Source: a virus (Duplodnaviria; Caudoviricetes). Taken from it: DNA of 64,000 bases. The notes beneath the pieces are model-generated. The model had not been told where the DNA came from and ran no database searches. It was given only the letters and a program-made list of their open reading frames with translations. Made by a program: the position numbers and the translations under genes. Below are positions 1 to 58,288 of this stretch, piece after piece. The stretch covers positions 1-64,000 of the IMG/VR virus record IMGVR_UViG_3300033067_001807. One strand, given 5' to 3'. Each line of letters starts with the position of its first letter. Position 1 is the stretch's first letter.

Positions 1-1290
1 TTCGTTTACTGTAATACTTTTAAGAAGTTTTTGTCCAATTTTAGACAATGAAACTCCTTCTTCTGAAATTGTAAAGTAATGTGCATTGTTTTTAGTCCAT
101 CTTTTAGAATTATTAGAAAGACCTGCAACAAAATTTTCAAATGCCTCTTTGGTAATTTTACCATTTTTAATAAACTCTAATACTTTATTTCTAACAGCAG
201 CTGTTTTACCTACTGTTTTTGCTGGATTATTTTCAGTATATTGTCTTTTAAGAATAACATTGCGACCTTCAGTAATCACAGATTCTAATACATCTTCTAA
301 TTCCAAGTCATAGTTTGCAAGAACTTTATCTAATTTATCTGCTGGAACTTTGTCGCCATACGAAACAGAAAGATCTTGAATTGCAGATTTTGCGTCAATC
401 ACCCAATCACCTGCGTTATTTGCAATCTTAACTATTTCTTTGGTATTATAGAATTTTTTAGATTCGATAACGATAGATTCTGCGACATTAGTTTCCCACC
501 AATCTTGAAGTTTTTGGAATTCTTTACTTCCCATATTTGAAAGCATATAATCCATTATGTCATTATCGTAATCTTCAGCTTCATCTTTATAACCACCTGG
601 AGTATCGATGTAATCTTTACCCATGATTTTTTTGATTGCTGATTCTGGCATTCCATCAATTTCCTCTAAGAAATCTTCGAAATTTTCAGTATTTTTAAAT
701 TTGGCTGCTTCAGTAACTACTGATTCATTTGCAAATGCCTTTTTCATGTTTTTTGCAATTGTGTCAACTGTATCATTTTTCTTACCATATACTGGATTCG
801 AAGGTACTGCCATATTCATAACATTTCCGTTTTGATAGATATTATATGAACCTCCCTCAAATTCTTCTCCATCAACATCAAGGTCAAATGAATCCTCTTC
901 TAATGTTCTTTTATTAACAGTAACTTTACTACTGTCAATTTTTGACATTGCGTCTGCAAATTTTTGTGCAATTTTCAAAGTCTCTTCCTTTGTAAGACCC
1001 GCTGGTTTTCCATAAGCCTCATCAAGATTTTCATTAACAACCAATTGAACATCTTTATCTTTGCCTGCAACTGCGGCATCTAATTCTTTAACTAGGTCAT
1101 TTTTCTTTGAGGTTAATCCCTTTAATTCTGCAAGAATATTTGCCTTTTCATCTCCGGTTGCGGCAGCATATTCCTTTGCCATTGCCGCCATTTTATTTAC
1201 AACTTCAGTAAATTCAGTTTGAATTTTGTTAATCGATCTTTCGTTTAACACACTGTTCATTTCATTTACGTATTTTTCAAATGAGCTCAT
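1..1290 (-). CDS. Modular putative internal-head polyprotein; runs off the left edge (>=430 aa); not in ORF track
   Basis: Hand translation from ATG at 1290 gives 430 codons with no stop (MSSFEKYVNEMNSVLNERS...KSITVNE). N-terminal capsid-targeting-like tag; linkers ENLDE|A, ESVVTE|A, ESIVIE|S, ESVITE|G. Confidence 0.85.
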   Translation of the reverse strand, partial: MSSFEKYVNEMNSVLNERSINKIQTEFTEVVNKMAAMAKEYAAATGDEKANILAELKGLTSKKNDLVKELDAAVAGKDKDVQLVVNENLDEAYGKPAGLTKEETLKIAQKFADAMSKIDSSKVTVNKRTLEEDSFDLDVDGEEFEGGSYNIYQNGNVMNMAVPSNPVYGKKNDTVDTIAKNMKKAFANESVVTEAAKFKNTENFEDFLEEIDGMPESAIKKIMGKDYIDTPGGYKDEAEDYDNDIMDYMLSNMGSKEFQKLQDWWETNVAESIVIESKKFYNTKEIVKIANNAGDWVIDAKSAIQDLSVSYGDKVPADKLDKVLANYDLELEDVLESVITEGRNVILKRQYTENNPAKTVGKTAAVRNKVLEFIKNGKITKEAFENFVAGLSNNSKRWTKNNAHYFTISEEGVSLSKIGQKLLKSITVNE

Positions 1291-3229: not shown

Positions 3230-4516
3230 TTATCTGCCGTATTTAATAATACCTAGTAGTGAATTTATTGCGGCGAATGTTCCTGTAAGCTTCATTGTCT
3301 TTCCTTTATAAACAAAAACAATACCTTCAGTTGGAATAATTGAGTCTATTCCTCCGATTCTATCAAGTCTTTCAAGTTCTGAAATTACTTTATCGACTTG
3401 TGGGGCTTCTCCTCCTTTTTTAATTTTATCTGCCTCAGATCTAATTTGTGCATGCAATCTTTGCATCTCGACTGCAGGGTTTGCTGCCACAAAGTTACTT
3501 GCATTTTTTAAGATAATACTACCCAACTCCAGAAATAAATCTTCAAATGGTCTAATATTTTCTTTATATTTCTTTTTAACGTCTTCTTTGTCAAATTTCT
3601 TAATTAATTCAGCCTGATCTTTTCCAAGTTCTTTATCTAAACTTCTTAAGTTAAGTGTTTTCTTGTCATCGTATGCCCATCTAAGTAGTAGACCCTCTTT
3701 AAAGTTTTGTGATAACGCTGGGAAATTTTTGTCAATTTGCTCTCTCCACCACATTTCATGATATTTAGAAACTTCATCAGCATCTGTTAATTTATAACGA
3801 TTTTTAAGTTCCTCTACCTTTGCAATAAATTTACCTTTGTTTTCACTGAAATTTAAGTCCTTACCTATTTGAATAATTTGAGGAGGGATTACTGTAAATA
3901 CCTTTCCTATATGTGATTTAACGTCCTCTAGGGCCTTTGCAATTGAGCGTGCATATTTATCTTCAGATCCAATAATATTACCCTCACCGTCAGTTATTTT
4001 AATCCCATGGAACTGTATAACATCTCTATCATAATAGATTACATTTGGATTTTTAGAATAAATAAGCTCCATGTTCATGAAGTTTTTACCATTGTTAAAT
4101 GCCTCTAAATCATTTGGTGATAATTTAATAAGTAAGGTAGCTAAATCATCTGCTGCAAATTGAAATGTGTCCTGTACTAATTTACTAGGATGTCCTTCAA
4201 ATTTTTGTTTAAACGCAGAAAGATCCATTGGATTTTTTAGTTCGGTTTTATTTCTTGCAAATTTAACTTGACCATCCTGTACTGTAGCAAAAACGTTTTG
4301 ACCATCGGTTTTTTCAGTAGGTTCCTTTTCAAATGTTAAATTACCGGATAGCCCTGCCTCAATGATTTTTTTAAAATCCCCAAAAGTTAAATCATGTTCA
4401 TCAAATGGATGTGACATATGCCCTGCTGCTCCGCCTTCAAGTAAAAGTTGCTCATGTAATTTAACTTCGTATTTTTCAGTTAAAAACTGATTAAAATTAA
4501 GGATTCTTGTTTTCAT
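3230..4516 (-). CDS. ATP-dependent ligase/nucleotidyltransferase-fold protein (RNA ligase-like) with capsid-targeting-like N-terminus
   Basis: TEKTDG (KxDG motif I), NMELI, EGIVF...KLTG (motifs IV/V-like). Start moved to ATG 4516 (MKTRILNFNQFLTE) because the upstream extension overlaps a hairpin/promoter. Confidence 0.6.
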   Translation of the reverse strand: MKTRILNFNQFLTEKYEVKLHEQLLLEGGAAGHMSHPFDEHDLTFGDFKKIIEAGLSGNLTFEKEPTEKTDGQNVFATVQDGQVKFARNKTELKNPMDLSAFKQKFEGHPSKLVQDTFQFAADDLATLLIKLSPNDLEAFNNGKNFMNMELIYSKNPNVIYYDRDVIQFHGIKITDGEGNIIGSEDKYARSIAKALEDVKSHIGKVFTVIPPQIIQIGKDLNFSENKGKFIAKVEELKNRYKLTDADEVSKYHEMWWREQIDKNFPALSQNFKEGLLLRWAYDDKKTLNLRSLDKELGKDQAELIKKFDKEDVKKKYKENIRPFEDLFLELGSIILKNASNFVAANPAVEMQRLHAQIRSEADKIKKGGEAPQVDKVISELERLDRIGGIDSIIPTEGIVFVYKGKTMKLTGTFAAINSLLGIIKYGR

Positions 4517-4533
4517 ATTGTAAATATAATAAA

Positions 4534-4563
4534 AATACCTGACATAATAAAACATCAGGTATT
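4534..4563 (-). terminator. Hairpin AATACCTGA...TCAGGTATT plus T-run, followed by TATATTTAC promoter-like box
   Basis: 9-bp inverted repeat at 4534-4542 and 4555-4563 between two genes. Confidence 0.6.
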
Positions 4564-4579
4564 ATTTATTTAAATTATT

Positions 4580-6298
4580 TTAAGATTCTTGAGAGATTTC
4601 TTCGTTCGTATCTGATTCTCCTAAAGAACCTGTTAACATTCCAACGCATGCACCATAATCTCCATCACATTTTTTAAGAATTCCATCTGCAACTTCTCCA
4701 GCTTTAGCTTCGTCAAAGTCAGTACCGAACGCTTTTTTCAAAACACTCATTGCATATTCTTTAAATTCATCGTCAGATTTGATTTCTGCTTCATTGACTA
4801 GGGATTCAAATAAAGTTAATTCATAGCGATATGCATATGATTTATCAGCTGTACTTTTTGATAGCTTCTTAGTAGCAAATCCCATAGATTTTAATTTCTT
4901 TTCGATTTCATCTCTACGTTGTTTATCTTCACATCTAAAAATTAAACGATCACTATTTCCATGAGAACCTTTTTCAAGTTCAACACTATTTGCGCCAATT
5001 CCGTATGGGTTATTTTCATACTTATCTCTAATTTCTTCAAATGACATAGCTTCATTAACTAAAGATTCTTTGATTCCTAATTCTTGTAATTTTCTAACAG
5101 GTACACCTTTCTTTTCTTCATCATCCGGATTAGGATATGCTAATAAATTAGCAGCAATTAATCTTTTGTAGATTTCTGCTTTAACTAATCCAAAATCAAT
5201 TGAGTCACTTGAATTTTCCCAAGTATCTGCGACATGTTCTGGATCGATCCAACCATATCCTGACTTGATATTTTTAACCATGTCGTTAAAATCGGCGTCA
5301 AATCGCTTAACAGCGGCCTCTGAGATTACTGACTCATTTTTTTTTACTGAATCCTTTAACGCATCTAATTCTTTTTTCAATTCCTTAGGTAGACCTCTTT
5401 CGATTCCCCAATTAAAACTTGCGTTAACTAACATATATAATGGTAAGTTCTCATTTCTTTTGCCATAAGGCGAAGATTCAATCCATGATAAATAATGGTC
5501 AGCTAATTCCTTTGACATTTTAATACCTTCTGCCTCTGTTGAATCACCGTCAACGATTCCTTTAAGTAATTTTTTAGCCATACCATGTTTTCCTTCAGTA
5601 ATCACAGTTTCGAACATTTTAGCTAATTTACTTTTTTTAAGAGTCATTGTAATAAAATCTACAATTTCATCAAATTCAAACATTTCATCATATAAATCTT
5701 TGAAAATAATCTCGGCCGATTTTAGCAAGGCATCCATTGCCTTAGTATTATGAAGTCCGTCCATTCTATCAAATGCGCTTCTGCTAATTGCCTCATCTAA
5801 ATGTTCTTCAACTTTATAAGTTTCTCCTTCAAATTCAAATTCAGATTCTCCTGCCTCTTTTGCTTTTCTAACTGCATCTCCAAAAGCATTACCTTCTTCA
5901 ATGGATTCCTTAACGCCAGTATCTTTAATTGTTACTTTATAAGTTTTACCATTAAATTCGAATTCATCTTTACCTTCTGCTTTGGCCTTTCCAGCAGCAT
6001 ATACAAATGCATTACCTTCTTCTAATTTTTTAGGTTCTCCTAATTTATTGATTTCGTCTTCAATATCTTCTGCTTCATCTTCTGAAACATTACCGAACAT
6101 TTTACTAATTAGTGCCTGTTTTGTATCTTCTTCCAATTCAGTTAGAGAGGTTACTCCCATTTCATCAAGGATTTCTCCAATTTTACCAACAGTTTCCTGT
6201 CTTTTTGCGTTGTTTTCTTCTCGTAGTTTCATTGCAGTTTCCTGGTTTTTAACCTCAGTAAAACTTTTAAATGAAGAGATTTTGTTAACTTCTGCCAT
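4580..6298 (-). CDS. Modular putative internal-head polyprotein (572 aa)
   Basis: Seven protease-site-like linkers at E94, E135, E169, E235, E327, E416 and E503; duplicated EEGNAF module; late-promoter-like motif upstream. Confidence 0.75.
   Translation of the reverse strand: MAEVNKISSFKSFTEVKNQETAMKLREENNAKRQETVGKIGEILDEMGVTSLTELEEDTKQALISKMFGNVSEDEAEDIEDEINKLGEPKKLEEGNAFVYAAGKAKAEGKDEFEFNGKTYKVTIKDTGVKESIEEGNAFGDAVRKAKEAGESEFEFEGETYKVEEHLDEAISRSAFDRMDGLHNTKAMDALLKSAEIIFKDLYDEMFEFDEIVDFITMTLKKSKLAKMFETVITEGKHGMAKKLLKGIVDGDSTEAEGIKMSKELADHYLSWIESSPYGKRNENLPLYMLVNASFNWGIERGLPKELKKELDALKDSVKKNESVISEAAVKRFDADFNDMVKNIKSGYGWIDPEHVADTWENSSDSIDFGLVKAEIYKRLIAANLLAYPNPDDEEKKGVPVRKLQELGIKESLVNEAMSFEEIRDKYENNPYGIGANSVELEKGSHGNSDRLIFRCEDKQRRDEIEKKLKSMGFATKKLSKSTADKSYAYRYELTLFESLVNEAEIKSDDEFKEYAMSVLKKAFGTDFDEAKAGEVADGILKKCDGDYGACVGMLTGSLGESDTNEEISQES
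5810..6025 (-). repeat. Two tandem intragenic modules EEGNAF..A..KAK..G..EFEF.G.TYKV
   Basis: Residues about 92-123 and 133-163 of ORF 4580-6298. Confidence 0.85.
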
Positions 6299-11688: not shown

Positions 11689-12057
11689 TTAGATTCTTTT
11701 ACCAAGAGCAGCACCTAAAGCAGCACCAACAAGTCTTGAGGTTAACATGTCATACATGATTCCATCTCTAATACCTAAAATATTTGCAACTGTCTTTCCA
11801 ACTGTCTTTCCAAGAGCAAATCCTGCAAGTCCACCGAATATACTTCCTAAAATACCTTCATTAGTTAATTCCTCATTGAAACGACTAACGTCATAAGATC
11901 CATCTTCCAATTGATATGTTGCAGTAAATTCATCAAGCGCAGCATTAACTTTAGCTTCAAGTTCATCGCTCCATTCGGTCTGTAGAGATTCATTTAATAT
12001 CTGTAACTCTGCTTCAGTAATATTTTGTTCGTTAATGTAATCTAAAAATGTTTTCAT
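11689..12057 (-). CDS. Small protein with capsid-targeting-like tag, acidic pro-region and C-terminal glycine-zipper helices
   Basis: MKTFLDYINE start; LTNE|GILGSIFGGLAGFALG...LVGAALGAALG; GATATATAA just upstream. Confidence 0.7.
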   Translation of the reverse strand: MKTFLDYINEQNITEAELQILNESLQTEWSDELEAKVNAALDEFTATYQLEDGSYDVSRFNEELTNEGILGSIFGGLAGFALGKTVGKTVANILGIRDGIMYDMLTSRLVGAALGAALGKRI

Positions 12058-20248: not shown

Positions 20249-23200
20249 TTAAGCCTGTATTTTAACATGTATTTTGAAGTTGTAAGAATATCCAAGTATC
20301 TTATTATATATTAGTCTAAAACTAAGTCCATCATTTTGATAACTTAAAATGTTATAGTTACTTAATTTTGTATAACTATTAAGAGTTAAATCTTCAACAT
20401 TATCTACCGAAACAAACCCAGTCGTTAAATCTTTACCTTGAATTCCATAGATGTCAATTGTGTCCAATATAAACCTAGGTGTTATATTGGTATTTGAATA
20501 TATGCTTAAATCATCTTGTATTGATTCTTTATCTCCAAATGAGAATTCACTTTTAATATATCTTTTAAATCTTGAAGTAATTCCGTCTTCTAATAATTCA
20601 TTAAGAATAGCACTTGGTAAATAAAAATCAGCAATCAATTGTGATTCATTTTCATACCAGTGTATTGAAGATTTATTAGATTGATTAAATCTAATTCTAT
20701 CCAACTCTTCTAAAGAATTTTCTTGAATATCGCTGAATCTTGTGATATCATAAGTGTCTTTAACCTTCATTATGGTCGAAACCATGAATGTTTTCTTTTC
20801 AACTGGACTTAAAGTACCATGTACTTCCTCCGAATTTCCACCGGCTAAAGCCTTAGAAAAGTATTTAGGTGAATATTTTGACATAAATAGGTTTAAATCC
20901 TTTTTATCAATTGCAATCTCTCCAATTGCAGGATATAATGGCAATTTATCAGAAGTTTGAGAAAGCTTTAAGATATTCTTTGAATCCTCGTCATTTACCT
21001 TATGATAAAAATAGTTTTTAATAATTCCATAGCTATTTGTATTTGTCTTAAATGATTCAAACGCAATTCCAAGCCCATTGAATTTATTATATACTAATCT
21101 TTCATAATCTGATATCTCATTATTTTCTGATAAAACCTTATATTGTGTATATAAATCAGTAAATGTTATAATGCTATTGAATGATGGATTATAATCTCCA
21201 TTCATTCTACGTAAAACAGTGATATAACCACCATCTGTTCTATTTGTAATTATTTTTCCAATTTCGCCAGAAACAAGTTGATATGCTTTAGGTCTGTCAG
21301 GATCTGCATCTGATTGTAACATCGATGGCTTAATTATATCAGTCCCTGATTCAATAGATAAAATATATTGATTGTTTAATATGGTACCATCTTCCTGTAC
21401 CGTAATATAATCAACATTATTTAATTTATTAAATGAGTTAGCAAAATTATATGCATTGATTTGATTTAACACCGAAGCAAATTGATTTTTACCACCTTGA
21501 TAATATTTAAATTCAGCATTTAATGGTACTAATCCAAACTGTGAAGGATCTAATCTAAGACTATTTGCAGAAATCGTACCAGTCGTTGTGTTAAATAAAT
21601 ATGGCCAACCACTAACAACTATACTCTCATCATTTATCACTCTAATAACCTTAACTGCCCATGTCTCTCCAATTGTATTAAAATAAATCCAACTAAAATT
21701 TCCTATTTCATCGGGAGTTACATACGTTCTAAATTTAGCGCTACCATCCTGTATAGCAAATTGAGAAGCATTTAATATTGCCTCTTCATTTGGATTAATT
21801 TGGCTAAATGAACTACCTGCAAAATCGATTTGAAATTTAATCAAAGTATCTATAACAATATTATTCTCCTTTACGTCGTTAAGTGTATATAATAAATTTC
21901 TATTTAAGTATTTTTCATCATTTTCAATAAGTTCTAACTCAATTAAAATACACATAAATTTAAATTTGTCATTCTTGATCGATGTAATTGTTGCAGCATC
22001 CTTATTTGAACCCTGTTTATATTTTAAAACAACTCCGAATTTAATGTCATTAGCCTCATTTGTTGGAATAAATTCAGTAGGATTTTGAGATATAGTTTCT
22101 TTTCTTTTTTGATAAACATATCTTAATCCTCTAAATACTGTCGATGCATTTTTTTCATTATTGCCAGCATCAAATTTAGTCCATAATGGTTTAAGGGTAT
22201 TATCATACCATATATTATCGATTGAATCATAATATCCATTCCAATTAAAGTATTGGTTAAAATAATCGAAAGAAGTGTCTTGTAATTTTGCAATTGTTAA
22301 TTCTTCATCTGCAAAGTTTACATAATTATTAAAATCCTTTCTTCCTCCTAGTAGAGTATTAGGTAGGTCATGTATATGAAAATGCTCCATATTCATTAAG
22401 TCAACGTTTCTCTTTGAATCTATTTCAATATTTGGTGATAGATTATCTTCACCAAATGATTCGTTTACGTTCAATGTATATGGTAAATTTCTTGCGTTTG
22501 TTGCGTTTTTTAATTCAAACTTACAAATATGAGGTGCTATTCTGCTTTTTATAGCTGTTTCCTTTAACTTATTTTCACCTAATCTATCATACTCTGATTT
22601 TAAATTAACTAATCCTTGATTTTCTTCAACCTTTTCGTTTTCTAAAATAGGATTCAATCCACTATAAAATGTAAATGCTTCATTATCTTCAAAGTCATAC
22701 GATAAATCTCCAAGTTCTGAGTTTTTAGTTGAATAAAAATCAAAGTCAAAATCTTTAAAATCATATGCAGCAAATCTTCCATGTGATATTTCGAAAATCT
22801 TATACGTTTCAAATACCATATCATTTGAAAGTTTTATTGGATTTTGTAATATTACTCTATATAAATCTTCGTTAAAAGGGTCTTTATCAAATTCTATAAT
22901 TTTAGAATATGATTCAGAGTCTTTTTCTTTAATCCACTCTGCACCAATTTCTATTGTTTTAATTTCAGAAGATTTTACTAAAAAGCCTTGTCCACCAGTA
23001 GAACCTCCAACCATTGTCCACATATTCCAATCTGAAAATATTGTGTTAGTTGTAGAAGGAACCAAAGAATTTACTAGCCCAATATTGCTTTCTTCTCCGT
23101 TCGATACTGTAATAAAGTTAACAGTGTTTGGCTTATAAATACCAAATACAGACATATATCTTCTATTACCATCTTGTGTATCTTCTATTATTATTGTGTT

Positions 23201-24652
23201 ATCTTTAACGTATGTTTTGTATGGCAATGCCTCGTTCGTTTTAATTGCATTAGATATTGCAATCGTAATTTGTTGAATAGATCCTTGATTTGAGAATCTA
23301 TTTGAGCTTGCTCTACCTGGAAGCATTGTTTCATCTGCTACCAATGTAAAATCGCCTAGATTATATCCGGCAATCTCAATTTCCATACGGTCTCCTATAA
23401 AAAATCTATCATTGTGATTTGGAACATCATTAACAGATAATCTAATAAATCCACGTGGATTCGGCGTTAATTTTTCTGCATTAATAATTTTACCTGTCTT
23501 TGAAAAACCTTCAAAATCAGAGTAGTTAGCTCCATTTAATGCAATTGGTAATTTTCCAAAAGAATAATTTGAACCATTTTTTATATTATGGAAATTTCCA
23601 TGTTTATCTTTAACATATTGCAATGATGGTATACTTAAATCAGATGCTTTAGGCAACATGTCAATATGTGACAAGGATGTGCCTGTGATGTCATACAAAC
23701 TTGTATATGAGTCCATATTAATACTTACTATTCCGTTTTTATTAATAGTATCAACCTTAAAATAACCCTCATCAATATCGTCTACATATAATCCGAAATA
23801 TCTGTATATTTTATAGTTCTCTGCTGTAGTATCATCAAATAAAAATTCAAGGTTAATTGTATTGGCTAAAATAATTCCATTTCTTTCAAATCCTTGTGTT
23901 ATAATTTCATTACTAAAAATTTCAGGATAGTCAACTTGCGTATAATATTTATCAAACTGTTCTGCTTTACTCACAAATCCACCATTAACTGTATCTATTC
24001 CATTATAAAAAGAGGAAGCACCCTCCTTAAAATTAACGCTTATTGCAGAATTTGGAAATTGTTTATCGTTGACATGCGTTGCTAAATATTTTCCAAGGGG
24101 TGCATTTATTCCAATATCAAATGTTTTAATAATAGTTGCCTTGCTTAATAACTCAACAATTCTTTGGTTTTGTCCAACTGTATCTTCATCATATTGTGAA
24201 ACATAGTCAACATCATCTACACGATATACTACAAATTTAGAAGGCAATTTCTTTTCAACCCATAATGGTGCAAATATTTTATACTGTTCATCATATAATT
24301 TTGTGGTATTATGAGAAGCTCCATACTGATATTGGTCTTCATATTGAATTGAATAATCGGAGTATAGAGTAACATCAGTATTTGTTCTTAATACTTGATA
24401 TTTTTCGCTATTAGGTAAATTTCTAAAGAATGTCGCAACATCAGACGAATATATGCCATCAGGTTTAATATCGAATTTTTGATACTCTACCTTTGCAAGT
24501 TCTTTGTTTGCTTTAAAAGCACTTAAAAATAAATTGGAATTTGAGTCAACAACTAATTTAAGATTACTTGTTAACTTAGGGTTGGTACGAAGCAATGCAA
24601 ATGATTTATTATCATTATCATTACGAACAACGCTTGTATTAATTATAGCCAT
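20249..24652 (-). CDS. Large putative baseplate/virion structural protein (1467 aa)
   Basis: Long ORF in the structural cluster; no enzyme motif recognised. Confidence 0.6.
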   Translation of the reverse strand: MAIINTSVVRNDNDNKSFALLRTNPKLTSNLKLVVDSNSNLFLSAFKANKELAKVEYQKFDIKPDGIYSSDVATFFRNLPNSEKYQVLRTNTDVTLYSDYSIQYEDQYQYGASHNTTKLYDEQYKIFAPLWVEKKLPSKFVVYRVDDVDYVSQYDEDTVGQNQRIVELLSKATIIKTFDIGINAPLGKYLATHVNDKQFPNSAISVNFKEGASSFYNGIDTVNGGFVSKAEQFDKYYTQVDYPEIFSNEIITQGFERNGIILANTINLEFLFDDTTAENYKIYRYFGLYVDDIDEGYFKVDTINKNGIVSINMDSYTSLYDITGTSLSHIDMLPKASDLSIPSLQYVKDKHGNFHNIKNGSNYSFGKLPIALNGANYSDFEGFSKTGKIINAEKLTPNPRGFIRLSVNDVPNHNDRFFIGDRMEIEIAGYNLGDFTLVADETMLPGRASSNRFSNQGSIQQITIAISNAIKTNEALPYKTYVKDNTIIIEDTQDGNRRYMSVFGIYKPNTVNFITVSNGEESNIGLVNSLVPSTTNTIFSDWNMWTMVGGSTGGQGFLVKSSEIKTIEIGAEWIKEKDSESYSKIIEFDKDPFNEDLYRVILQNPIKLSNDMVFETYKIFEISHGRFAAYDFKDFDFDFYSTKNSELGDLSYDFEDNEAFTFYSGLNPILENEKVEENQGLVNLKSEYDRLGENKLKETAIKSRIAPHICKFELKNATNARNLPYTLNVNESFGEDNLSPNIEIDSKRNVDLMNMEHFHIHDLPNTLLGGRKDFNNYVNFADEELTIAKLQDTSFDYFNQYFNWNGYYDSIDNIWYDNTLKPLWTKFDAGNNEKNASTVFRGLRYVYQKRKETISQNPTEFIPTNEANDIKFGVVLKYKQGSNKDAATITSIKNDKFKFMCILIELELIENDEKYLNRNLLYTLNDVKENNIVIDTLIKFQIDFAGSSFSQINPNEEAILNASQFAIQDGSAKFRTYVTPDEIGNFSWIYFNTIGETWAVKVIRVINDESIVVSGWPYLFNTTTGTISANSLRLDPSQFGLVPLNAEFKYYQGGKNQFASVLNQINAYNFANSFNKLNNVDYITVQEDGTILNNQYILSIESGTDIIKPSMLQSDADPDRPKAYQLVSGEIGKIITNRTDGGYITVLRRMNGDYNPSFNSIITFTDLYTQYKVLSENNEISDYERLVYNKFNGLGIAFESFKTNTNSYGIIKNYFYHKVNDEDSKNILKLSQTSDKLPLYPAIGEIAIDKKDLNLFMSKYSPKYFSKALAGGNSEEVHGTLSPVEKKTFMVSTIMKVKDTYDITRFSDIQENSLEELDRIRFNQSNKSSIHWYENESQLIADFYLPSAILNELLEDGITSRFKRYIKSEFSFGDKESIQDDLSIYSNTNITPRFILDTIDIYGIQGKDLTTGFVSVDNVEDLTLNSYTKLSNYNILSYQNDGLSFRLIYNKILGYSYNFKIHVKIQA

Positions 24653-38359: not shown

Positions 38360-39169
38360 TTATAGTAGGGAATCTAGTTTTGCTTGTAACTTTTTTAAGG
38401 TCTTTTGATAATCTACGATTGATTTTCTTTTCCATTCAATATTCATTTGTTTCCAAGAAGCAATTCTTTTAGCGATTCCATTATCACGCTCTGAATTATA
38501 GAATGACTCGTCATTGTTGTAGTTTTTAGCAGCATCTCTACTTACAATTTCTTTCCATGTTGGCCATTCATGCCAAGACTCTCTAGGATTATCTTTAATA
38601 GATTGAATGATTTCAGCATCAGTTAATTTAGAATTTGTTTCAGCATCTTCAGTTGCTCTTTTAATTCTAACTTCGTAGCTCTGAATTTCTTGGTTAAGTT
38701 TTTCAAGCTTAGACATTTTCTTAATCTTCTCAGAATATTCTTTTGAAATTTCACTGGCACCGGTTTTAGGGATATTTGTCTTAACAATATATCTATAGTG
38801 AAGTCTTTGGATGTTGTGACCACCTGCATAAATTGCTTCAGTTACAAAACTATATGTAGTTCCTTCTCTTTGGATTTGAGAAGATATTTCAATATTTCCT
38901 TTAGCACTTTTACTAACATTAAGAGAAAGTAACAAATCAGTGGGTTGTGTATATGCTTCAACTGCTTTAACCATATCAAAGATTAAATTTAATCTTGCCA
39001 TTTCTCTGTCATATTTAGTAAACTCCTGTTTAAATGTTTCAGTAAACCATTTTTCGGTAGCTGCTAACATTTCTACAATAGTAGGTTCCATCGAATCCAA
39101 AATAACATTTACAATATTATTTTGTTTGGATTCATTAACGAATTGATTATATGTTTTAAATTTACTCAT
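38360..39169 (-). CDS. Hypothetical protein with capsid-targeting-like N-terminus
   Basis: MSKFKTYNQFVNE|S; C-terminal coiled coil. Confidence 0.65.
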   Translation of the reverse strand: MSKFKTYNQFVNESKQNNIVNVILDSMEPTIVEMLAATEKWFTETFKQEFTKYDREMARLNLIFDMVKAVEAYTQPTDLLLSLNVSKSAKGNIEISSQIQREGTTYSFVTEAIYAGGHNIQRLHYRYIVKTNIPKTGASEISKEYSEKIKKMSKLEKLNQEIQSYEVRIKRATEDAETNSKLTDAEIIQSIKDNPRESWHEWPTWKEIVSRDAAKNYNNDESFYNSERDNGIAKRIASWKQMNIEWKRKSIVDYQKTLKKLQAKLDSLL

Positions 39170-48008: not shown

Positions 48009-48596
48009 TTACGTTAAACGATCAAGTTCAATCGATTTAGGTCTAAATAGTAGTTTGTCAAAATAGTCAGGTGAAGTGCCTGCCCTATCACCAAGAAACT
48101 TCTTGATGTGCGCCTGAAACACCCCTTTACTTCCATAGTAGTAACTACCCTTAGAATATGTGTTTCGTGTGGTTAATTCATATAAATCCTTGATAGTCTT
48201 TTCAATAAAAAAATCTTGTATATTATTATATAATTCGATTACTTCTCCATACGTTCTAACACACATCACAGAATCAACAACAACCATATAAGTTTCCCAT
48301 TTAGATTCTATATAATTTTGAAATTCTTTAACAGTTGCAAATTTTTGCCTAGATATTTTAAAAGTAGTAAGAGCTCCTTCAAAATTTCTATCAAATTTCA
48401 TATCGAACATATATCTTTTTAAAAAGTCAATATCATCATAAAACCTGGTAATACGAATTTGATATCTTGGCATTTTGTCATTAAACTCAACATCATGAAT
48501 AATGGCGCGAACCGGAAAAACAATATTGTTATACCGATTGTTTGCGATCAATACATGGATATGTTCTCCTTTTGAAAATAATTTATGTCTAATCAT
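48009..48596 (-). CDS. Hypothetical protein
   Basis: ORF, coupled to its neighbours. Confidence 0.65.
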   Translation of the reverse strand: MIRHKLFSKGEHIHVLIANNRYNNIVFPVRAIIHDVEFNDKMPRYQIRITRFYDDIDFLKRYMFDMKFDRNFEGALTTFKISRQKFATVKEFQNYIESKWETYMVVVDSVMCVRTYGEVIELYNNIQDFFIEKTIKDLYELTTRNTYSKGSYYYGSKGVFQAHIKKFLGDRAGTSPDYFDKLLFRPKSIELDRLT

Positions 48597-48997
48597 TTTT
48601 TAATAATATTAACATGTTCAAATAAATTTGCGATTCTCGCATCTACATTTACATTATTATGTATTATCGTTAATATGATTACTTGCTCTCTAGTGGATTG
48701 AGAGTCTATTAATCTTTTAAAATTTGTTACAACTTCAAATTCAAGATTTTTAAATAGATAAATTACACGACTAACATCTGTATTATCTATATGAAGCTGT
48801 CGTGTAATTTCAGATACTATTGTTAATCCAACAACTGAATCACTTGGCTCTTGGCCATAGGGATCTGCCTTAATAAGTTTATTTTTTATTGAAGCATGGT
48901 CAATCACTTTAGTTGACACTTTATCAATATCTTTTATAAACTTATTAAATTCTCGTCTCGATGGACACCATACACATTCAATTGTTAAGTTATTCAT
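48593..48997 (-). CDS. Hypothetical protein
   Basis: ORF, coupled to its neighbours. Confidence 0.6.
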   Translation of the reverse strand: MNNLTIECVWCPSRREFNKFIKDIDKVSTKVIDHASIKNKLIKADPYGQEPSDSVVGLTIVSEITRQLHIDNTDVSRVIYLFKNLEFEVVTNFKRLIDSQSTREQVIILTIIHNNVNVDARIANLFEHVNIIKK

Positions 48998-49312
48998 TTA
49001 TTGTTTTATAGAAGCCTTTAACAATTTTAATTGTTTTTCAAGCTTCTCTATTTTTTCCAATTTCTCTTTATCGCTTGGAATGTAATCAACACCCCAGTCT
49101 TCGATAATTTGTATTTGGCGTTTATTTTTTGAATTACCAAATGTTAATCCAATATCAACACATAATTCGGTAATAAATTTAATTTTGTTAGATTGAATTT
49201 CAAAATCATAAACTGTTGTTGATTCAAAACCCTCTCCAGCAGAATTAATATTATCATCTATTACAGTTTTAATAACGCCATTGTCGGCTAATGTTATTTT
49301 AACTGTTTGCAT
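48998..49312 (-). CDS. Hypothetical protein
   Basis: ORF, coupled to its neighbours. Confidence 0.6.
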   Translation of the reverse strand: MQTVKITLADNGVIKTVIDDNINSAGEGFESTTVYDFEIQSNKIKFITELCVDIGLTFGNSKNKRQIQIIEDWGVDYIPSDKEKLEKIEKLEKQLKLLKASIKQ

Positions 49313-49691
49313 TTAACCTTGCATTTAAAGATTCTCTTGCCTGTTTTTGAAGATCAGCTGATTTTTTCTTATCTTCCTTGTATGTTAGTTTATTTTTAAT
49401 ATTAACAAGAATCCATGCCTCTTCTAACATTTTTATTTCAGCATCATTATATCCTTGTTCTTTCCAAGATTCTTTTAATCCATTTACCTTAATTTGTAAT
49501 TGATTTTCAATATCATCTTGTACTCTATTTAAAAAAGCCTCATGCGCCTGATTTCCATCATTTCGGGTTTTATCATACCATGCTTCACCTGGTCCATTTA
49601 GAGGGCTATACATATTTTTAATTTTTAAGTAACCCATTGCTGCCAATTGCGATCTGCGTTGTCTTCTAGACGGTGTTGTTCCTTTACTCAT
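49299..49691 (-). CDS. Hypothetical protein
   Basis: ORF with basic N-terminus SRRQRR. Confidence 0.65.
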   Translation of the reverse strand: MSKGTTPSRRQRRSQLAAMGYLKIKNMYSPLNGPGEAWYDKTRNDGNQAHEAFLNRVQDDIENQLQIKVNGLKESWKEQGYNDAEIKMLEEAWILVNIKNKLTYKEDKKKSADLQKQARESLNARLNANS

Positions 49692-50325
49692 TGTAGTATT
49701 TATTTATAAACGTTATTACTTCTTCTTTTAAATATTCTTGTAGTTTATTTATCTCTATTTGTGAAACAGCAACTTGTGCAATTGTCTTTATAAGATTTTC
49801 TTTGTCCTCATCCGCATTTTCAATCAACATATTAAATATCTGTCTATTTGGTATGTTTAAGTTTATGGTTACAAGTAAAGGCTCTATATTTTTTTTAGAA
49901 AGCTTAGCAACCAACTCTTCCAATGGAGAAATTTCAGCAGGTTTGTTGATATGCCGTGTGGCATGTTGAATTGAATCACTGGAGTCAATATTAATTTCCT
50001 TTGTTGATTTTTCACCCATCGCTATTAAATTCAATGAATCTGCCCCTGGAAATGGTAATTTTCCATCAACTACTTCTTCCATAAATTCACCTAACACCTC
50101 ATTAAAAATTTGAGAACCGTCTGTAAAGTATGTAAATTTAGCATCGCTATTTTTTACTTCTACAACCTTTCCGAAGTTTTCACCCTTTTTCCATTGGTAT
50201 GTTTTAACAGTATCTTTCACTAATTCCATTATTTGTATATTTTCATGTTTATATTCATTTTTAGAAAAATGTTTCTTAATCCAATTGATTGAACTCTTCA
50301 TCATTTTCATGGTATTTAATTTCAA
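49684..50325 (-). CDS. Hypothetical protein (start uncertain; 50301 or 50229 possible)
   Basis: ORF with several in-frame ATGs. Confidence 0.6.
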   Translation of the reverse strand: MKLNTMKMMKSSINWIKKHFSKNEYKHENIQIMELVKDTVKTYQWKKGENFGKVVEVKNSDAKFTYFTDGSQIFNEVLGEFMEEVVDGKLPFPGADSLNLIAMGEKSTKEINIDSSDSIQHATRHINKPAEISPLEELVAKLSKKNIEPLLVTINLNIPNRQIFNMLIENADEDKENLIKTIAQVAVSQIEINKLQEYLKEEVITFINKYYNE

Positions 50326-50473
50326 ATCTTTCTATAAAATCTATTCCACAATCATCTCCAATTAATACATCTACATTTCTAACGTATTTATAATAGAATG
50401 CTTTACTGCCATTTTCATTAAGAAATTTCGCAAGTGTCTCAGCACTTGGAACTATTATTTTATTAATACTCAT
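50276..50473 (-). CDS. Small hypothetical protein
   Basis: 65-aa ORF overlapping the deaminase stop. Confidence 0.45.
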   Translation of the reverse strand: MSINKIIVPSAETLAKFLNENGSKAFYYKYVRNVDVLIGDDCGIDFIERFEIKYHENDEEFNQLD

Positions 50474-50975
50474 TCCAAACGTTTACTTGATTTACTTTTA
50501 TATTTGCAGTTTTTAATAATTCAACACCACTCATATCTCTATAATCTTCACTATAGTATACTTCATTTACCCCTGATTGTATGATTAATTTTGCACAATC
50601 AAAACATGGACATGTTGTTGTATATAGAGTTGCTCCTTCGCAACTCATTGTAGATTTCGCAACTTTCATAATTGCGTTTGATTCCGCATGCAAAACTTCA
50701 CGCTTTGTCACACTTCGATGTGCACATCCATCTTCATCAGATAATGTCCATCCATTTTCATCAAGAAGTTTCGCCTGTTCAGGAAAATCCCAACCGGTTC
50801 TTTCAACACACTCACATTCATTTTCAAATCCATGTGGAGTACCATTGTACCCAAATGAAATTACTTGTTTGTCTTTAACAATAACACATCCAACCTTTCT
50901 TCGGTTTGCATAACTAAGTTTTGCAAACTGATAGGCTACTTGCATGTATATGTGTTCGATCGGAATTTTAGGCAT
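50463..50975 (-). CDS. cd: dCMP deaminase
   Basis: KVGCVIV, GYNGTP, LHAESNA and PCFDCAKLIIQSG zinc-deaminase motifs. Confidence 0.92.
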   Translation of the reverse strand: MPKIPIEHIYMQVAYQFAKLSYANRRKVGCVIVKDKQVISFGYNGTPHGFENECECVERTGWDFPEQAKLLDENGWTLSDEDGCAHRSVTKREVLHAESNAIMKVAKSTMSCEGATLYTTTCPCFDCAKLIIQSGVNEVYYSEDYRDMSGVELLKTANIKVNQVNVWNEY

Positions 50976-50977
50976 AA

Positions 50978-51026
50978 AAAAAGTCTATATGTTTATTATT
51001 ATATATAGACTTTTTATTTAGTTTAT
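50978..51026 (-). promoter_or_regulatory. Class A promoter (50998-51026) overlapped by a 13-bp inverted repeat (50978-50990 / 51003-51015)
   Basis: ATAAAC-N15-TATATAAT; aaaaagtctatat pairs with atatagacttttt. Confidence 0.65.
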
Positions 51027-51033
51027 TTGTGGA

Positions 51034-51510
51034 TTATTCTACATCCTCAGCATCAACTGCATCTTTTACCTGCTTAGACTCATTGATTTTTTTAGAGTAT
51101 GCTTCGGCCATTTTATTTAAACATGCTTCAAATGCTTCGGTTTCCATGTCACCTTTCATTTCGTTAAGTGCATTAACTCCCATTTTTGCAACTAATGCAG
51201 CATTTTCAGCCATATAAGTTTCTACGGTATGGTCATCATGTGCATCTTCGTCCCATGCCTGTGCCTCTTCCATTACTCTCTCGTAACATTTTTCTAGCAT
51301 TTCTGAAACGGGAATAGTTGGATTAATTCCATCTCCTTTTCCTTGAATTGGAGTTACTTTTTCTTCAGATTCTTGTACCTCTTCAGCTTCTTCTTCAGCC
51401 TCTTCAAAATCCTTGTCATCAGGTTCTGCCATTGAAGTTAATTTAGTTTCTATCTCCTCTGCTCTGTCCATTTCAGAAATAAAGGTTTCAAATGATTTAA
51501 TACTTGCCAT
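51034..51510 (-). CDS. Very acidic protein with capsid-targeting-like N-terminus
   Basis: MASIKSFETFISE; about 45 D/E versus 15 K/R in 158 aa (hand count); GATATATAA upstream. Confidence 0.75.
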   Translation of the reverse strand: MASIKSFETFISEMDRAEEIETKLTSMAEPDDKDFEEAEEEAEEVQESEEKVTPIQGKGDGINPTIPVSEMLEKCYERVMEEAQAWDEDAHDDHTVETYMAENAALVAKMGVNALNEMKGDMETEAFEACLNKMAEAYSKKINESKQVKDAVDAEDVE

Positions 51511-51543
51511 AGTTTTTAATTTTTTTATTATTAGTATATGAAT

Positions 51544-51870
51544 TTATATATCTTTATCTTTTGACAGGTATTCAAAACTAGAAGGAAGGACGTGTTTTTG
51601 AATTTTTAAGGCCTTAATTATTATTGCAACTATAACACCGCCTGGCATTAATGCAATAGTAGTAAGACCTATTGTTTTTAAAACATCTTTGAATTGGTTT
51701 CCAACCCATTCTCTTTGAAGTTCATCCATTTTTATATCGTATATGATATGATTGTACAACATCGTGAATGCGTCTTGCGTTTCTTTACCTTCAAGCTTTA
51801 ATGCACTAATAAATTTCTTAGAGTTTGTCTTAAAATCATTAATATGATTTGACAATATGCTTGTTTTCAC
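51544..51870 (-). CDS. Small membrane protein
   Basis: Hydrophobic IGLTTIALMPGGVIVAIII followed by LPSSF. Confidence 0.6.
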   Translation of the reverse strand: MKTSILSNHINDFKTNSKKFISALKLEGKETQDAFTMLYNHIIYDIKMDELQREWVGNQFKDVLKTIGLTTIALMPGGVIVAIIIKALKIQKHVLPSSFEYLSKDKDI

Positions 51871-51879
51871 CTAACGCAG

Positions 51880-52221
51880 TTAATCTTCTGATTTATATGG
51901 TAGTTTTTTATCATGTCCACCATCTCTAACTTCTTTAGCTAAATCGGCATCAGCCTTGCCCCATGTTCCTGCACCTTTTTCTAGAAATGCGTTTACTCTT
52001 GCATGTCCCCAAGCCTCTTGACTCATTCCTTCATAGTGACTTGAATTCCATGCTCCCATTCCTCTTCGCATAACTGCATTTAAAATTCCAATCGGTACAC
52101 CAGATTCTTTACTCTTTTTAGCAAGAGATTTATTTAAATCCGGATTTTCTAACTTTGCTCTAGAAGTTTCTTTGTCATCTTTTTCTGTCAAAAATTCTTC
52201 AAATAACATAAAATGTTTCAT
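51880..52221 (-). CDS. Conserved phage protein (DUF5824-like) with capsid-targeting-like tag
   Basis: MKHFMLFEEFLTE; KKSKESGVPIGILNAVMRRGMGAW..H....QEAWGHARVNAF pattern. Confidence 0.65.
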   Translation of the reverse strand: MKHFMLFEEFLTEKDDKETSRAKLENPDLNKSLAKKSKESGVPIGILNAVMRRGMGAWNSSHYEGMSQEAWGHARVNAFLEKGAGTWGKADADLAKEVRDGGHDKKLPYKSED

Positions 52222-52239
52222 ATTAATACATATATTTAT

Positions 52240-53160
52240 TTAGCTATATATCATTGAAAAGTCTTTATGATATTTTTGTAATGCTAATTCCTTTGCTTTT
52301 GCCTCTATTTCTATGTCGAGTTCCATACCGTATGTTTCAATAAATTCATACAAATAATCGGCATGGGCTCTTAGTATAACTGAACTATCTTCATGTAATT
52401 TTTTGGAAGATGAATAGTGGCATAATTGTCTAATACCCTTTGGCCATGTGGTTGCGCATAATTCTAATGCATCTTTTTCTGAAATAGAATCCTCATAACA
52501 AAAATGGTGGAAGAAATCAAATGTGATTGGAGTACCACATAACTTATAAATTTCATAAAGATCCGTTACACCATATTGGCTTGGTTTATCGTCATTTTCT
52601 AAAACAAGACGAGAACTTGCACATTCTGGTAATAGTTTAAAATTTTCTGCAAATCTTTTAATTGCAGCATCTTTGTCACCATAGGTTCCACCTACATGGA
52701 TATTCATCGCAGCGTAATGATTTCTAGGTAAACCCATTAAATCCATAACCTTACCATGCTGGGTTAATTCCCATATTGCATCTTTTACTACCTTTGGATT
52801 TGGACTTGCAAGAATATTAAATGGACCTGGATGGAATGTAAGACGTTGACCTACTTTAGTTGCATAATCACCGGCTGTTTTTAATAAAGATTTGATTGAG
52901 TTATAATTAGGTAACTCTTCAATATCGTATTCAGAATTCCATGGGAACATGCTAGAGGACATACGGTACATTGTAATTCCATTTGCATTATTCCATTTAA
53001 GAATTTCAATCATGTCCCTGAGGTTAGCTTCTGCCAACTCACCTGCGTATTTAATACCTTTCGCCTGAAAGGTTTTCTTAATCATGCTTCTACCTATCTT
53101 AATTCCTTTTTGTTTATCCAATGTTAAGTTGATACAACAGTACCCGTAATTTGCAGCCAT
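52240..53160 (-). CDS. uvsE: UV damage endonuclease UvsE/UvdE
   Basis: GYCCIN, YRMSSSMFP, RLTFHPGPF, LENDDK, TPITFDFFHH, H-A-D and EAKAKE motifs. Confidence 0.92.
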   Translation of the reverse strand: MAANYGYCCINLTLDKQKGIKIGRSMIKKTFQAKGIKYAGELAEANLRDMIEILKWNNANGITMYRMSSSMFPWNSEYDIEELPNYNSIKSLLKTAGDYATKVGQRLTFHPGPFNILASPNPKVVKDAIWELTQHGKVMDLMGLPRNHYAAMNIHVGGTYGDKDAAIKRFAENFKLLPECASSRLVLENDDKPSQYGVTDLYEIYKLCGTPITFDFFHHFCYEDSISEKDALELCATTWPKGIRQLCHYSSSKKLHEDSSVILRAHADYLYEFIETYGMELDIEIEAKAKELALQKYHKDFSMIYS

Positions 53161-57090: not shown

Positions 57091-57375
57091 TTATATTTGT
57101 TCTAAAATATCTCTAATTCTAGCACATTTTTCATACTCTTCTACTTCAACAAATATTTCTAACATTTGATTAAGAGTTTTTGAAAGAGATTCAATATCAA
57201 ACCCATTGCGCTTCATTGTTTTAATATCTATTCCGTTTTCTACAATCATGTCATAGTTTTCATTCGCTAACTTCATTTTTAGCTCATACATCATTTCTTC
57301 CATTAAAGCTTCTCTTTTCATAGTTGTAATTTCGTCATCTTCCTCAAAAAGGTCATTAAAATTAAATTCGTCCAT
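57091..57375 (-). CDS. Small UVR-motif protein
   Basis: IFVEVEEYEKCARIRDIL; start moved to MDEFNF, downstream of element copy 3. Confidence 0.7.
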   Translation of the reverse strand: MDEFNFNDLFEEDDEITTMKREALMEEMMYELKMKLANENYDMIVENGIDIKTMKRNGFDIESLSKTLNQMLEIFVEVEEYEKCARIRDILEQI

Positions 57376-57388
57376 GTTGTATATTTTA

Positions 57389-57465
57389 TAATTATAGTGT
57401 AAATATAAATAAAAAATGCCAAACAAAAAAATATTTGGCAATTTATTTACAAAAAAGTTATTAAT
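57389..57465 (-). promoter_or_regulatory. Conserved intergenic element, copy 3
   Basis: Hairpin TGCCAAA..TTTGGCA with the same flanks. Confidence 0.75.
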
Positions 57466-58288
57466 AATTTACTCTAATTGATTTATCTATAAGAATATCA
57501 ATCTCCCATTCAATGTTTTTACCCTGCAGTGCCGTATCGTAATGATTGGCAAGTCCTGCATTTTTATTTTGTTCACTATTTCTTTGTGAATATTGTGTAT
57601 ATTTAGATCTGACGTAATCAGCTCCCATATATTTGTAATGTAATAATTTTATTGGAAAATTATTAAAAGTTTCTAATACTTCAAATTGCATTTTCCACCT
57701 GCCCCATGGATGTCCATTCCATTCACCAACTGGTCTAATTTCTTTGGGAACTGGGTGTAAGATTTCTCCTTCAAATTCAGAGTTTAATTCAATCTCATGA
57801 CAGCCTTCAATCCATTTCATCGATTTAATTTTATTTGGATTAATTAGAATAGGTTTTGAGTACCATGGATCTGGAACACCATGATTTATTTGTTCATATA
57901 TCTGAATATCTTCTTCTGGAAAGTGATGTGAAACCATTTGAAAACCGGCTGGAAATATCACTGAAGAATCATTTGTTTGTAAGAATTCTATAATATTGGG
58001 ATGGCATATAAATTCGTCACAATCACTTACTATAATATAATCTGCATTTCCTTTAGCATTTTCAATACATTGATGCTTTAAATCAAGGTGAACATAATCA
58101 TTGAAAGTTTCGCCTGTATTATATTGTATCACTTCAACCTTTGGATGTTTCTCACATATCCTTAGAGTGTTGTCTGTTGATTGATTATCTAAGACTATTA
58201 TTCTTTCACAAAACTGAGAATAGTGTCTTAGATAGTAAGGAAGCATCTTCTCCTCATTCCAAACAGTAACGTATGCCCATACTTTCAT
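57461..58288 (-). CDS. GT-A fold glycosyltransferase (GT2-like)
   Basis: WNEEKMLPYYLRHY, DNQSTDNT, DCDEF (DxD) and LLHYKY. Confidence 0.8.
   Translation of the reverse strand: MKVWAYVTVWNEEKMLPYYLRHYSQFCERIIVLDNQSTDNTLRICEKHPKVEVIQYNTGETFNDYVHLDLKHQCIENAKGNADYIIVSDCDEFICHPNIIEFLQTNDSSVIFPAGFQMVSHHFPEEDIQIYEQINHGVPDPWYSKPILINPNKIKSMKWIEGCHEIELNSEFEGEILHPVPKEIRPVGEWNGHPWGRWKMQFEVLETFNNFPIKLLHYKYMGADYVRSKYTQYSQRNSEQNKNAGLANHYDTALQGKNIEWEIDILIDKSIRVNY

Follow-up and report, generated by a model that had tools for sequence, protein, structure and literature searches.

The internal proteins (IPs) of bacteriophage T4 are single tagged proteins, highly basic and cut once next to the tag (PMC8442874). 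This tag, the capsid targeting sequence (CTS), reads MKTYQEFIAE (PMC8442874), where residues 4 and 7 have a part in targeting and 8 and 10 in processing (PMC9026906, PMC8442874), and the prohead protease gp21 cuts after Glu at L/I-X-E (PMC9026906). The cleavages of the T4 core and of the phiKZ and SPN3US head proteins clear scaffold or propeptide material (PMC9026906, PMC10052503), and the phiKZ-type cleavage motif is S/A/G-X-E, with A-X-E in SPN3US (PMC10052503). The polyvalent proteins of phages and conjugative elements (Iyer et al. 2017, PMC5512222) join many unrelated domains in a single polypeptide, proposed to accompany the DNA, and their authors themselves compare them to viral polyproteins (PMC5512222). 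Here, we describe P0001, a 572-amino acid (aa) protein encoded in a 64,000-nucleotide (nt) stretch of Caudoviricetes DNA from an uncultured marine relative of T4 (positions 1 to 64,000 of the IMG/VR record IMGVR_UViG_3300033067_001807, hereafter the window). On the basis of sequence and structure modelling, P0001 is probably a head-cargo polyprotein, which would be loaded into the prohead and cut by a gp21-type protease into small proteins.

P0001 resembles each of these systems in part. The T4 proteins IPI, IPII, IPIII and Alt have the same leader form, aromatic-x-x-F-[LIV]-x-E, as the leader-tagged proteins described below. The Glu cleavage rule L/I-X-E, followed in T4 by a Peptidase_S77 protease (PMC9026906), is the same that we predict here, and in both cases the genes are scattered away from the head cluster and the content behind the conserved tag is hypervariable (PMC9026906, PMC8442874). 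P0001 differs from the T4 IPs in being one tagged precursor with up to eight mostly acidic, unrelated modules and a site after each, and relatives can carry more. Several Glu sites, with redundant neighbouring ones, are likewise found in T4 gp22, gp67 and gp68 and in the phiKZ/SPN3US propeptides (PMC9026906, PMC10052503); unlike the phiKZ-type sites, those of P0001 have a hydrophobic P3, are of T4 type, and separate folded domains that also occur independently. The eight modules of P0001 fall within the two to fifteen domains per polypeptide of polyvalent proteins. Those proteins, however, have recognisable enzymatic or DNA-binding domains and a proposed release by embedded zincin-like metallopeptidases (MPTases) (PMC5512222), whereas in P0001 the family and fold searches described below gave no recognisable domain or peptidase, and it would be cut in trans at a uniform linker. 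Single-cut T4 IPs, multiply cut core proteins and propeptides, and polyvalent proteins are already known; for head cargo made as a polyprotein with uniform prohead-protease linkers we found no description in the literature searched, which included two jumbo-phage reviews.

Modular architecture of P0001

P0001 consists of eight modules, A to H, seven of which end in a linker (Table 1, where the arrow marks the predicted cut). A preliminary description of the locus, written by a model from the letters of the window, had already named seven Glu linkers; all of them lie at the residues it gave, the gene is on the minus strand, and its segment lengths of 41, 34, 66, 92, 89, 87 and 69 aa are correct. 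It had also regarded the segments as unrelated apart from the first two. Coherently, a pairwise BLAST of the eight segments matched B to C (64% identity over 28 aa, E 1.4e-10) and found the segments otherwise mutually unrelated, the sole match between F and G being the common linker itself.

The AlphaFold2 model of P0001, obtained from an alignment of 57 sequences (P0001 and 56 homologues), has a mean predicted local distance difference test score (pLDDT) of 67.5 and a predicted template modelling score (pTM) of 0.34. The stretches with pLDDT below 50 (residues 86-95, 125-136, 165-188, 224-238, 323-325, 412-418 and 495-503) coincide with the seven linkers. Scores of about 80-95 are reached by B, C, E, F and H and of 55-76 by G, while A is a helical module of moderate confidence only. 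Across site 327 the model draws one long helix, with a dip in confidence there. Independent small domains, with low-confidence linkers at the motifs, are what the preliminary description had expected, and the model suggests that P0001 is organised as beads on a string with exposed sites.

No module of P0001 has a recognisable function in Pfam, PHROGs, Foldseek, VIA-align or ESM Atlas. More precisely, P0001 was assigned to no family in Pfam (E < 0.01) or PHROGs (E < 0.001). In the structural searches, for which the modules were not folded and searched singly, Foldseek gave nothing at E <= 0.001 against PDB and BFVD, its matches having E > 0.01. In the wide VIA-align search the highest Z was 6.6, within the noise range, and concerned common folds (a ferredoxin-like one for G, helical ones for D and H). 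The ESM Atlas search with modules E and F returned no usable match. Two viral open reading frames (ORFs) of roughly 79 aa, the only Foldseek hits of note, match a single module. A multi-core precursor of the type that yields ribosomally synthesised and post-translationally modified peptides was considered and rejected, the modules being folded domains of 34-92 aa.

Table 1. Position of P0001, its modules and further features, in window coordinates
Feature	Coordinates	Strand	Description
P0001, whole ORF	4580..6298	-	Candidate cargo polyprotein; ATG start, 572 aa and stop codon
N-terminal leader	6254..6298	-	Residues 1-15, MAEVNKISSFKSFTE; CTS-like F-x-x-F, form nearest T4 IPI
Module A	6017..6298	-	Residues 1-94; helical, acidic, always N-terminal; end KLEE94↓G
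Module B	5894..6016	-	Residues 95-135; GNAF..GK.YKV mini-domain (helix and hairpin); end ESIEE135↓G
Module C	5792..5893	-	Residues 136-169; second copy of the B-type mini-domain; end HLDE169↓A
Module D	5594..5791	-	Residues 170-235; helical, optional cassette; end ETVITE235↓G
Module E	5318..5593	-	Residues 236-327; helical domain (pLDDT about 90); end ESVISE327↓A
Module F	5051..5317	-	Residues 328-416; confident alpha/beta domain; end ESLVNE416↓A
Module G	4790..5050	-	Residues 417-503; alpha/beta domain, rare cassette; end ESLVNE503↓A
Module H	4583..4789	-	Residues 504-572; three-helix domain and degenerate last linker SLGE561↓SDTNE
Promoter-like motif GATATATAA	6331..6339	-	33 nt upstream of the P0001 start codon
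Other copies of GATATATAA	10903, 12061, 14331, 38340, 42181, 47987, 51544, 62338	-	
Terminator-like hairpin	4537..4560	-	Followed by a T-run, after the P0001 stop codon; read from the sequence
Second polyprotein-like ORF	1..1290	-	C-terminus cut by the contig end; leader MSSFEKYVNE10↓
ORF with CTS-like leader	38360-39169	-	
ORF with CTS-like leader	51034-51510	-	
ORF with CTS-like leader	51880-52221	-	
ORF with CTS-like leader	11689-12057	-	
ORF with CTS-like leader	3230-4516	-	

Linker motif and junction rule

The linkers follow the pattern hydrophobic-x-Glu↓small residue, often extended to E-S-[LIV]-V-[NT]-E↓[AG], and some of them have a second site five residues upstream. Glu at P1 together with a Leu/Ile-type P3, which is the T4-type cleavage rule, is present in 7/7 P0001 linkers. 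In T4, an Asp at P1 prevents processing. By chance, 0.05 copies of the strict motif E[ST][LIVM][LIVM]xE would be expected in P0001; it has four, a count reached by 0 of 200,000 shuffles of the protein. On the 81.5-kb contig to which the window belongs, this motif is found only in P0001 (four times) and in the second polyprotein-like ORF (1-1290, minus strand; three times), and the remaining 24,986 aa encoded by the contig, once these two proteins are removed, contain none against 0.85 expected. The looser pattern [LIVM]xE[AGS] has 11 matches in P0001, all in or beside the linkers and 0 in the module cores.

Homologues of P0001 number 537 of near full length and 212 shorter, all metagenomic. 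The peptide ES[LIV]V[NT]E is present in 1-6 copies in 114 of the 120 best homologues. Then, the first residue of each module was extrapolated in 240 long and short homologues, counting distinct sequences once: of the 379 distinct junctions, 369 have Glu immediately ahead of the module (B 81/81, C 83/83, D 8/8, E 40/40, F 69/77, G 21/23, H 67/67), and P3 is hydrophobic in about 347 of the 379. The other linker positions vary, as in PKKLEE, DTGLKE, EENIDE, SEPLNE, AGTVYE and ESVVNE. Read from the sequences, the junction rule of the homologues is that of T4 gp21, L/I-X-E.

The two identical ESLVNEA linkers of P0001 differ at 4/7 codons, so the peptide itself is under selection; on the same codon differences, the idea that the linkers are mere DNA repeats for recombination was rejected. 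A distinct case is the pair formed by ETVITE↓G of P0001 (E235, about 5590-5610) and ESVITE↓G of ORF 1-1290 (E341, about 265-285), which share 16 identical nt, CTGTGATTACTGAAGG, possibly the trace of a recombination between the two genes.

Modules as cassettes and as standalone proteins

Once the modules were mapped on the homologues, A was always N-terminal, the B/C mini-domain was present in 1-4 copies, and D and G were optional. Modules E, F and H hold their order, with other cassettes inserted between them, and H is the most widely shared module. In the 57-sequence alignment used for the analysis of insertions and deletions, module D (residues 168-232/233) is deleted in 33 of the 56 aligned homologues and module G (about 414-500) in about 30 aligned sequences, and long insertions fall chiefly after residue 324 and behind the H domain. 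Gain and loss thus affect entire cassettes, whose ends lie at the linkers. In distant relatives, a gene of the P0001 kind lies directly after UvsW and has only module H in common.

Standalone ORFs of 94-290 aa exist for modules E, F and G as well, and in these the module starts directly after a T4-CTS-like leader of the form MKHIxxFExF[LIV]NE↓. The boundary set by the leader in these proteins is equivalent to the one set by the linker in P0001. For module F, MKHIHTFENFLNE13↓AAVKQF corresponds to the P0001 junction ESVISE327↓AAVKRF; for module G, MKHIKLFEDFVNE13↓GMSFQEIK to ESLVNE416↓AMSFEEIR; and for module E, MNYFKLYENFITE13↓GQHGMAKKLL (protein P0135) to ETVITE235↓GKHGMAKKLL. Standalone ORFs of 94-102 aa (P0208, P0235, P0187 and P0189) carry F directly behind a leader, and standalone forms of G have 96 aa (P0181) or 106 aa (P0164/P0174). 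The place of F differs among the short ORFs: it may stand by itself, come second in a two-module protein, or precede another module.

In a group of DUF3008 (PF11450) proteins from related contigs (P0191, P0223, P0233, P0238 and the product of L001 17638-18204), the linker ESFVNE↓G is followed by module G. Since these proteins carry linker and module, named Pfam domains also serve as beads.

Leader peptides and the second polyprotein

The P0001 leader, ISSFKSFTE15, is conserved in at least 90% of sequences at I7, S9, F10, K11, F13 and E15. Compared with the N-termini of the T4 ip products (NC_000866), it is most like IPI, MKTFKEFTS..ITE19↓A, which is cut further downstream. The leader form aromatic-x-x-F-[LIV]-x-E, present in full on the standalone versions of its modules, matches the targeting and processing residues of the T4 CTS.

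Searched as a regular expression, this form is found in 8 of the 85 ORFs of the contig and in 35 of the 295 ORFs of G001, a 234-kb collinear relative described in the next section, where the matches mostly read MKHIKLFEQF[LIV]NE. Applied as a control to the initial 100 kb of T4 (165 ORFs), the expression finds ipII, ipIII and gp61.1, together with three apparent false positives. The cleavage-site motif is enriched 18-fold in the first 30 residues of the G001 ORFs (18 against 0.96 expected). The 54-aa T4 gp61.1 (NC_000866 18966-19130, locus L166) has the CTS-like N-terminus MKTFKEFIKE.

Roughly 10% of the G001 ORFs, about 30 genes, carry a near-identical MKHIKLFEQF[LIV]NE leader, a set much larger than that of T4. 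These genes are clustered (loci L074-L085), for example at 23092-24329, 48489-52444, 105915-107903, 158610-159336 and 169722-181537. In the window, the leaders of the five further tagged ORFs in Table 1 read MSKFKTYNQFVNE13↓S, MASIKSFETFISE13↓M, MKHFMLFEEFLTE13↓K, MKTFLDYINE10↓Q and MKTRILNFNQFLTE14↓K; one of the five encodes a DUF5824 protein, and the ORF 3230-4555 (minus strand) probably has its true start at the ATG at 4516. When ten leader-tagged proteins were compared with Pfam, the matches were limited to DUF5824 and, weakly, ATP-grasp, with no functional clue.

The second polyprotein-like ORF (1-1290) has the linkers ESVVTE194↓A, ESIVIE276↓S and ESVITE341↓G, and its modules 18-91 and 195-276 are internal cassettes of P0001-family proteins in other phages. 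Full-length homologues of this ORF measure 688 aa in the phage sequence L001 and 913 aa in G001.

Genomic context, head protease and expression signals

The contig of P0001 (G000) is a linear IMG/VR fragment of 81.5 kb with a GC content of 32%, estimated by CheckV as 27% complete, from which we derive a genome of near 300 kb. P0001 has replication genes of the T4 type as neighbours (UvsW, a UvsY-like gene, primase and gp32), with tail and baseplate genes further along. An S77 protease gene and a gp23 capsid gene were looked for on the 81.5-kb fragment, and neither was found.

The IMG/VR relative G001 has 70 of the 85 ORFs in common with the contig, at a mean identity of 67%. It encodes a 640-aa protease (139642-141564, minus strand) with an N-terminal Peptidase_S77 domain (PF03420, E 4.5e-13), which aligns to T4 gp21 (PDB 5JBL) and keeps the catalytic His (ELDHP) and Ser (ISSR). 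Its C-terminal part is a 470-aa acidic, heptad-rich, scaffold-like tail. The sites RVNE↓A and FVNE171↓G follow the protease domain directly and MVNE614↓S lies close to the C-terminus; judged from the sequence, these positions are as expected for autoprocessing. A second, short S77-like ORF of 132 aa (E 1.7e-8) lies at 57359-57613 on the minus strand of G001.

The gp23-type capsid protein of G001 is closest to those of uncultured huge phages, Lak phages, Sphingomonas phage PAU and Tenacibaculum phage PTm1, and these neighbours suggest a Bacteroidota host, probably among the marine Flavobacteriia. The gene order of the contig runs on from 51544 (G001 233614) to 52240 (G001 730), so that the two ends of G001 join; G001 may be a nearly complete, circularly permuted genome, despite the CheckV estimate of 77%.

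The motif GATATATAA, found upstream of P0001, would be expected 2.4 times in the window; nine copies are present, each of them on the coding strand. The copies lie mostly 25-40 nt upstream of gene starts, including those of tail/baseplate and leader-tagged genes. As a candidate promoter element, this motif resembles the T4 late TATAAATA box, and its distribution suggests that it marks a common, possibly late, promoter class.

Proposed mechanism and alternative explanations

The simplest reading of P0001 is loading into the prohead core, followed by gp21-type cutting after each linker Glu. The conserved CTS-like leader and the helical A region would probably address the precursor to the assembling prohead core, and with them would travel seven further self-folding modules, with a flexible linker between each. 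During head maturation, a serine protease of the T4 gp21 family would cut after each linker Glu, and the products, proteins of 4-10 kDa, would remain inside the head and reach the host together with the DNA, like the T4 internal proteins; alternatively, they might serve in the core or leave it. In this way one targeting signal would load many cargo modules and, since the same joint bounds every module, modules would be swappable, addable and losable as cassettes.

The preliminary description had proposed such a cargo polyprotein, giving for gp21 an [IL]-X-E specificity that agrees with PMC9026906. What it predicted about sequences holds: among the homologues examined the linker motifs are kept (114 of the 120 best, and the junction counts), and the segments occur as standalone ORFs, in two-module proteins, and as inserted or deleted cassettes. 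The architecture, the linker conservation, the cassettes, the equivalence of linker and leader boundaries and the gp21-family protease of the collinear relative are what the analysis shows; targeting, cleavage, retention, ejection and any anti-host function of the P0001 products are inferred.

Several observations weigh against a cargo polyprotein. The modules are mostly acidic or neutral (isoelectric point 4.1-6.9; whole P0001 4.8, net charge -38), unlike the highly basic T4 IPs, with which P0001 has no sequence similarity that we could find and whose small, highly basic character it does not have. The P0001 leader has F-x-x-F without the canonical [LIV]-x-E ending (it reads FTE15↓V), and its removal is uncertain for this reason. 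The gene lies beside UvsW and not among head genes, although the T4 ip genes are likewise far from the head cluster. Since the fragment is without a head module, the protease is known only from the relative of ~67% identity. The junctions behind the 369/379 count share ancestry and are not phylogenetically independent events. When P0001 and L031, a distant homologue by position, were compared by tblastn with 50,697 phage records, neither gave a match, and no cultured relative was found. Finally, the N-terminus of the G001 capsid protein, MANLINE7↓AEI, resembles ESLVNE503↓AEI of P0001, but the stretch is conserved as a whole and Ser replaces Glu7 in 8 of 48 relatives, so we treat this likeness as weak evidence. 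The stretch MANLINE7↓AE also resembles the start of the T4 gp23 propeptide.

The pieces of P0001 could also be cut by the prohead protease and yet be disposable core or scaffold material, like T4 gp22, gp67 and gp68, which would help to build or size a large head and then be expelled, without acting on the host. Scaffold-derived peptides are acidic, as P0001 is, module A is helical (with only moderate confidence), and no module has a recognisable effector domain. Furthermore, the core proteins of T4 are cleaved by this rule into several pieces, most of which leave the head (PMC9026906). Against this, E, F and H are compact modules, confidently folded and not coiled coil, and the same modules exist as separate leader-tagged small proteins. 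Their cassette turnover between related phages is the pattern of the hypervariable T-even internal proteins, unlike a conserved scaffold (PMC9026906), and G001 already has a scaffold-like tail fused to its protease. Folded modules, separate tagged genes and fast turnover thus favour cargo, while acidic modules and the lack of a recognisable function favour core debris, which we regard as rather unlikely.

It is improbable that P0001 stays intact, as beads on a string in which the Glu peptide is a structural or interaction element at domain boundaries. Repeated linkers may be inherited with duplicated or recombined cassettes, and the linker pair with 16 identical nt in the two polyprotein genes suggests recombination at the joints; the identical linker peptides with different codons point the other way. 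Only the P1 Glu and the hydrophobic P3 are kept, a pattern better explained by the subsites of a protease than by a binding motif. The N-terminal leaders of dozens of unrelated small proteins end by the same rule, and the linkers are predicted to be flexible, not structured. The position of the gene among replication and repair genes would suit a cutting in the cytoplasm by another protease, of the host or a phage Clp-type one, with products acting unpackaged in the infected cell. Clp proteases, however, degrade processively and do not cut at defined Glu sites, the junction rule and leader match the T4 gp21/CTS system specifically, and the relative G001 encodes a gp21-family protease; we consider this explanation very improbable. 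Both an uncleaved protein and a processing outside the capsid are less likely than prohead loading and cutting.

Implications for T4-related jumbo phages

Beyond P0001 itself, we tentatively propose, as a possibility less likely than not, that a large clade of marine T4-related jumbo phages, probably infecting Bacteroidota, has a capsid-cargo cassette system, in which the linker is both release site and swap joint between genes and phages. Any small protein could then enter the capsid in one of two ways, with a T4-like leader of its own or as one bead of a leader-tagged polyprotein, and each phage would have a fast-changing injected set of anti-defence or takeover proteins.

Provided that linker cleavage takes place in the prohead, a single targeting signal would bring many small proteins into each head and would leave them free to be reshuffled between phages. 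With the leader and linker rule, virion cargo of uncultured T4-related phages can be sought by a simple sequence signature, and the rule gives a design hint for packaging several foreign proteins at once in T4-type capsids. If the proposal is true, the T4 internal-protein paradigm would be extended from single tagged proteins to an exchangeable polyprotein cargo, and hundreds of uncharacterised small domains of the ocean virome would become candidate injected proteins, that is, the first phage products to meet the host defences.

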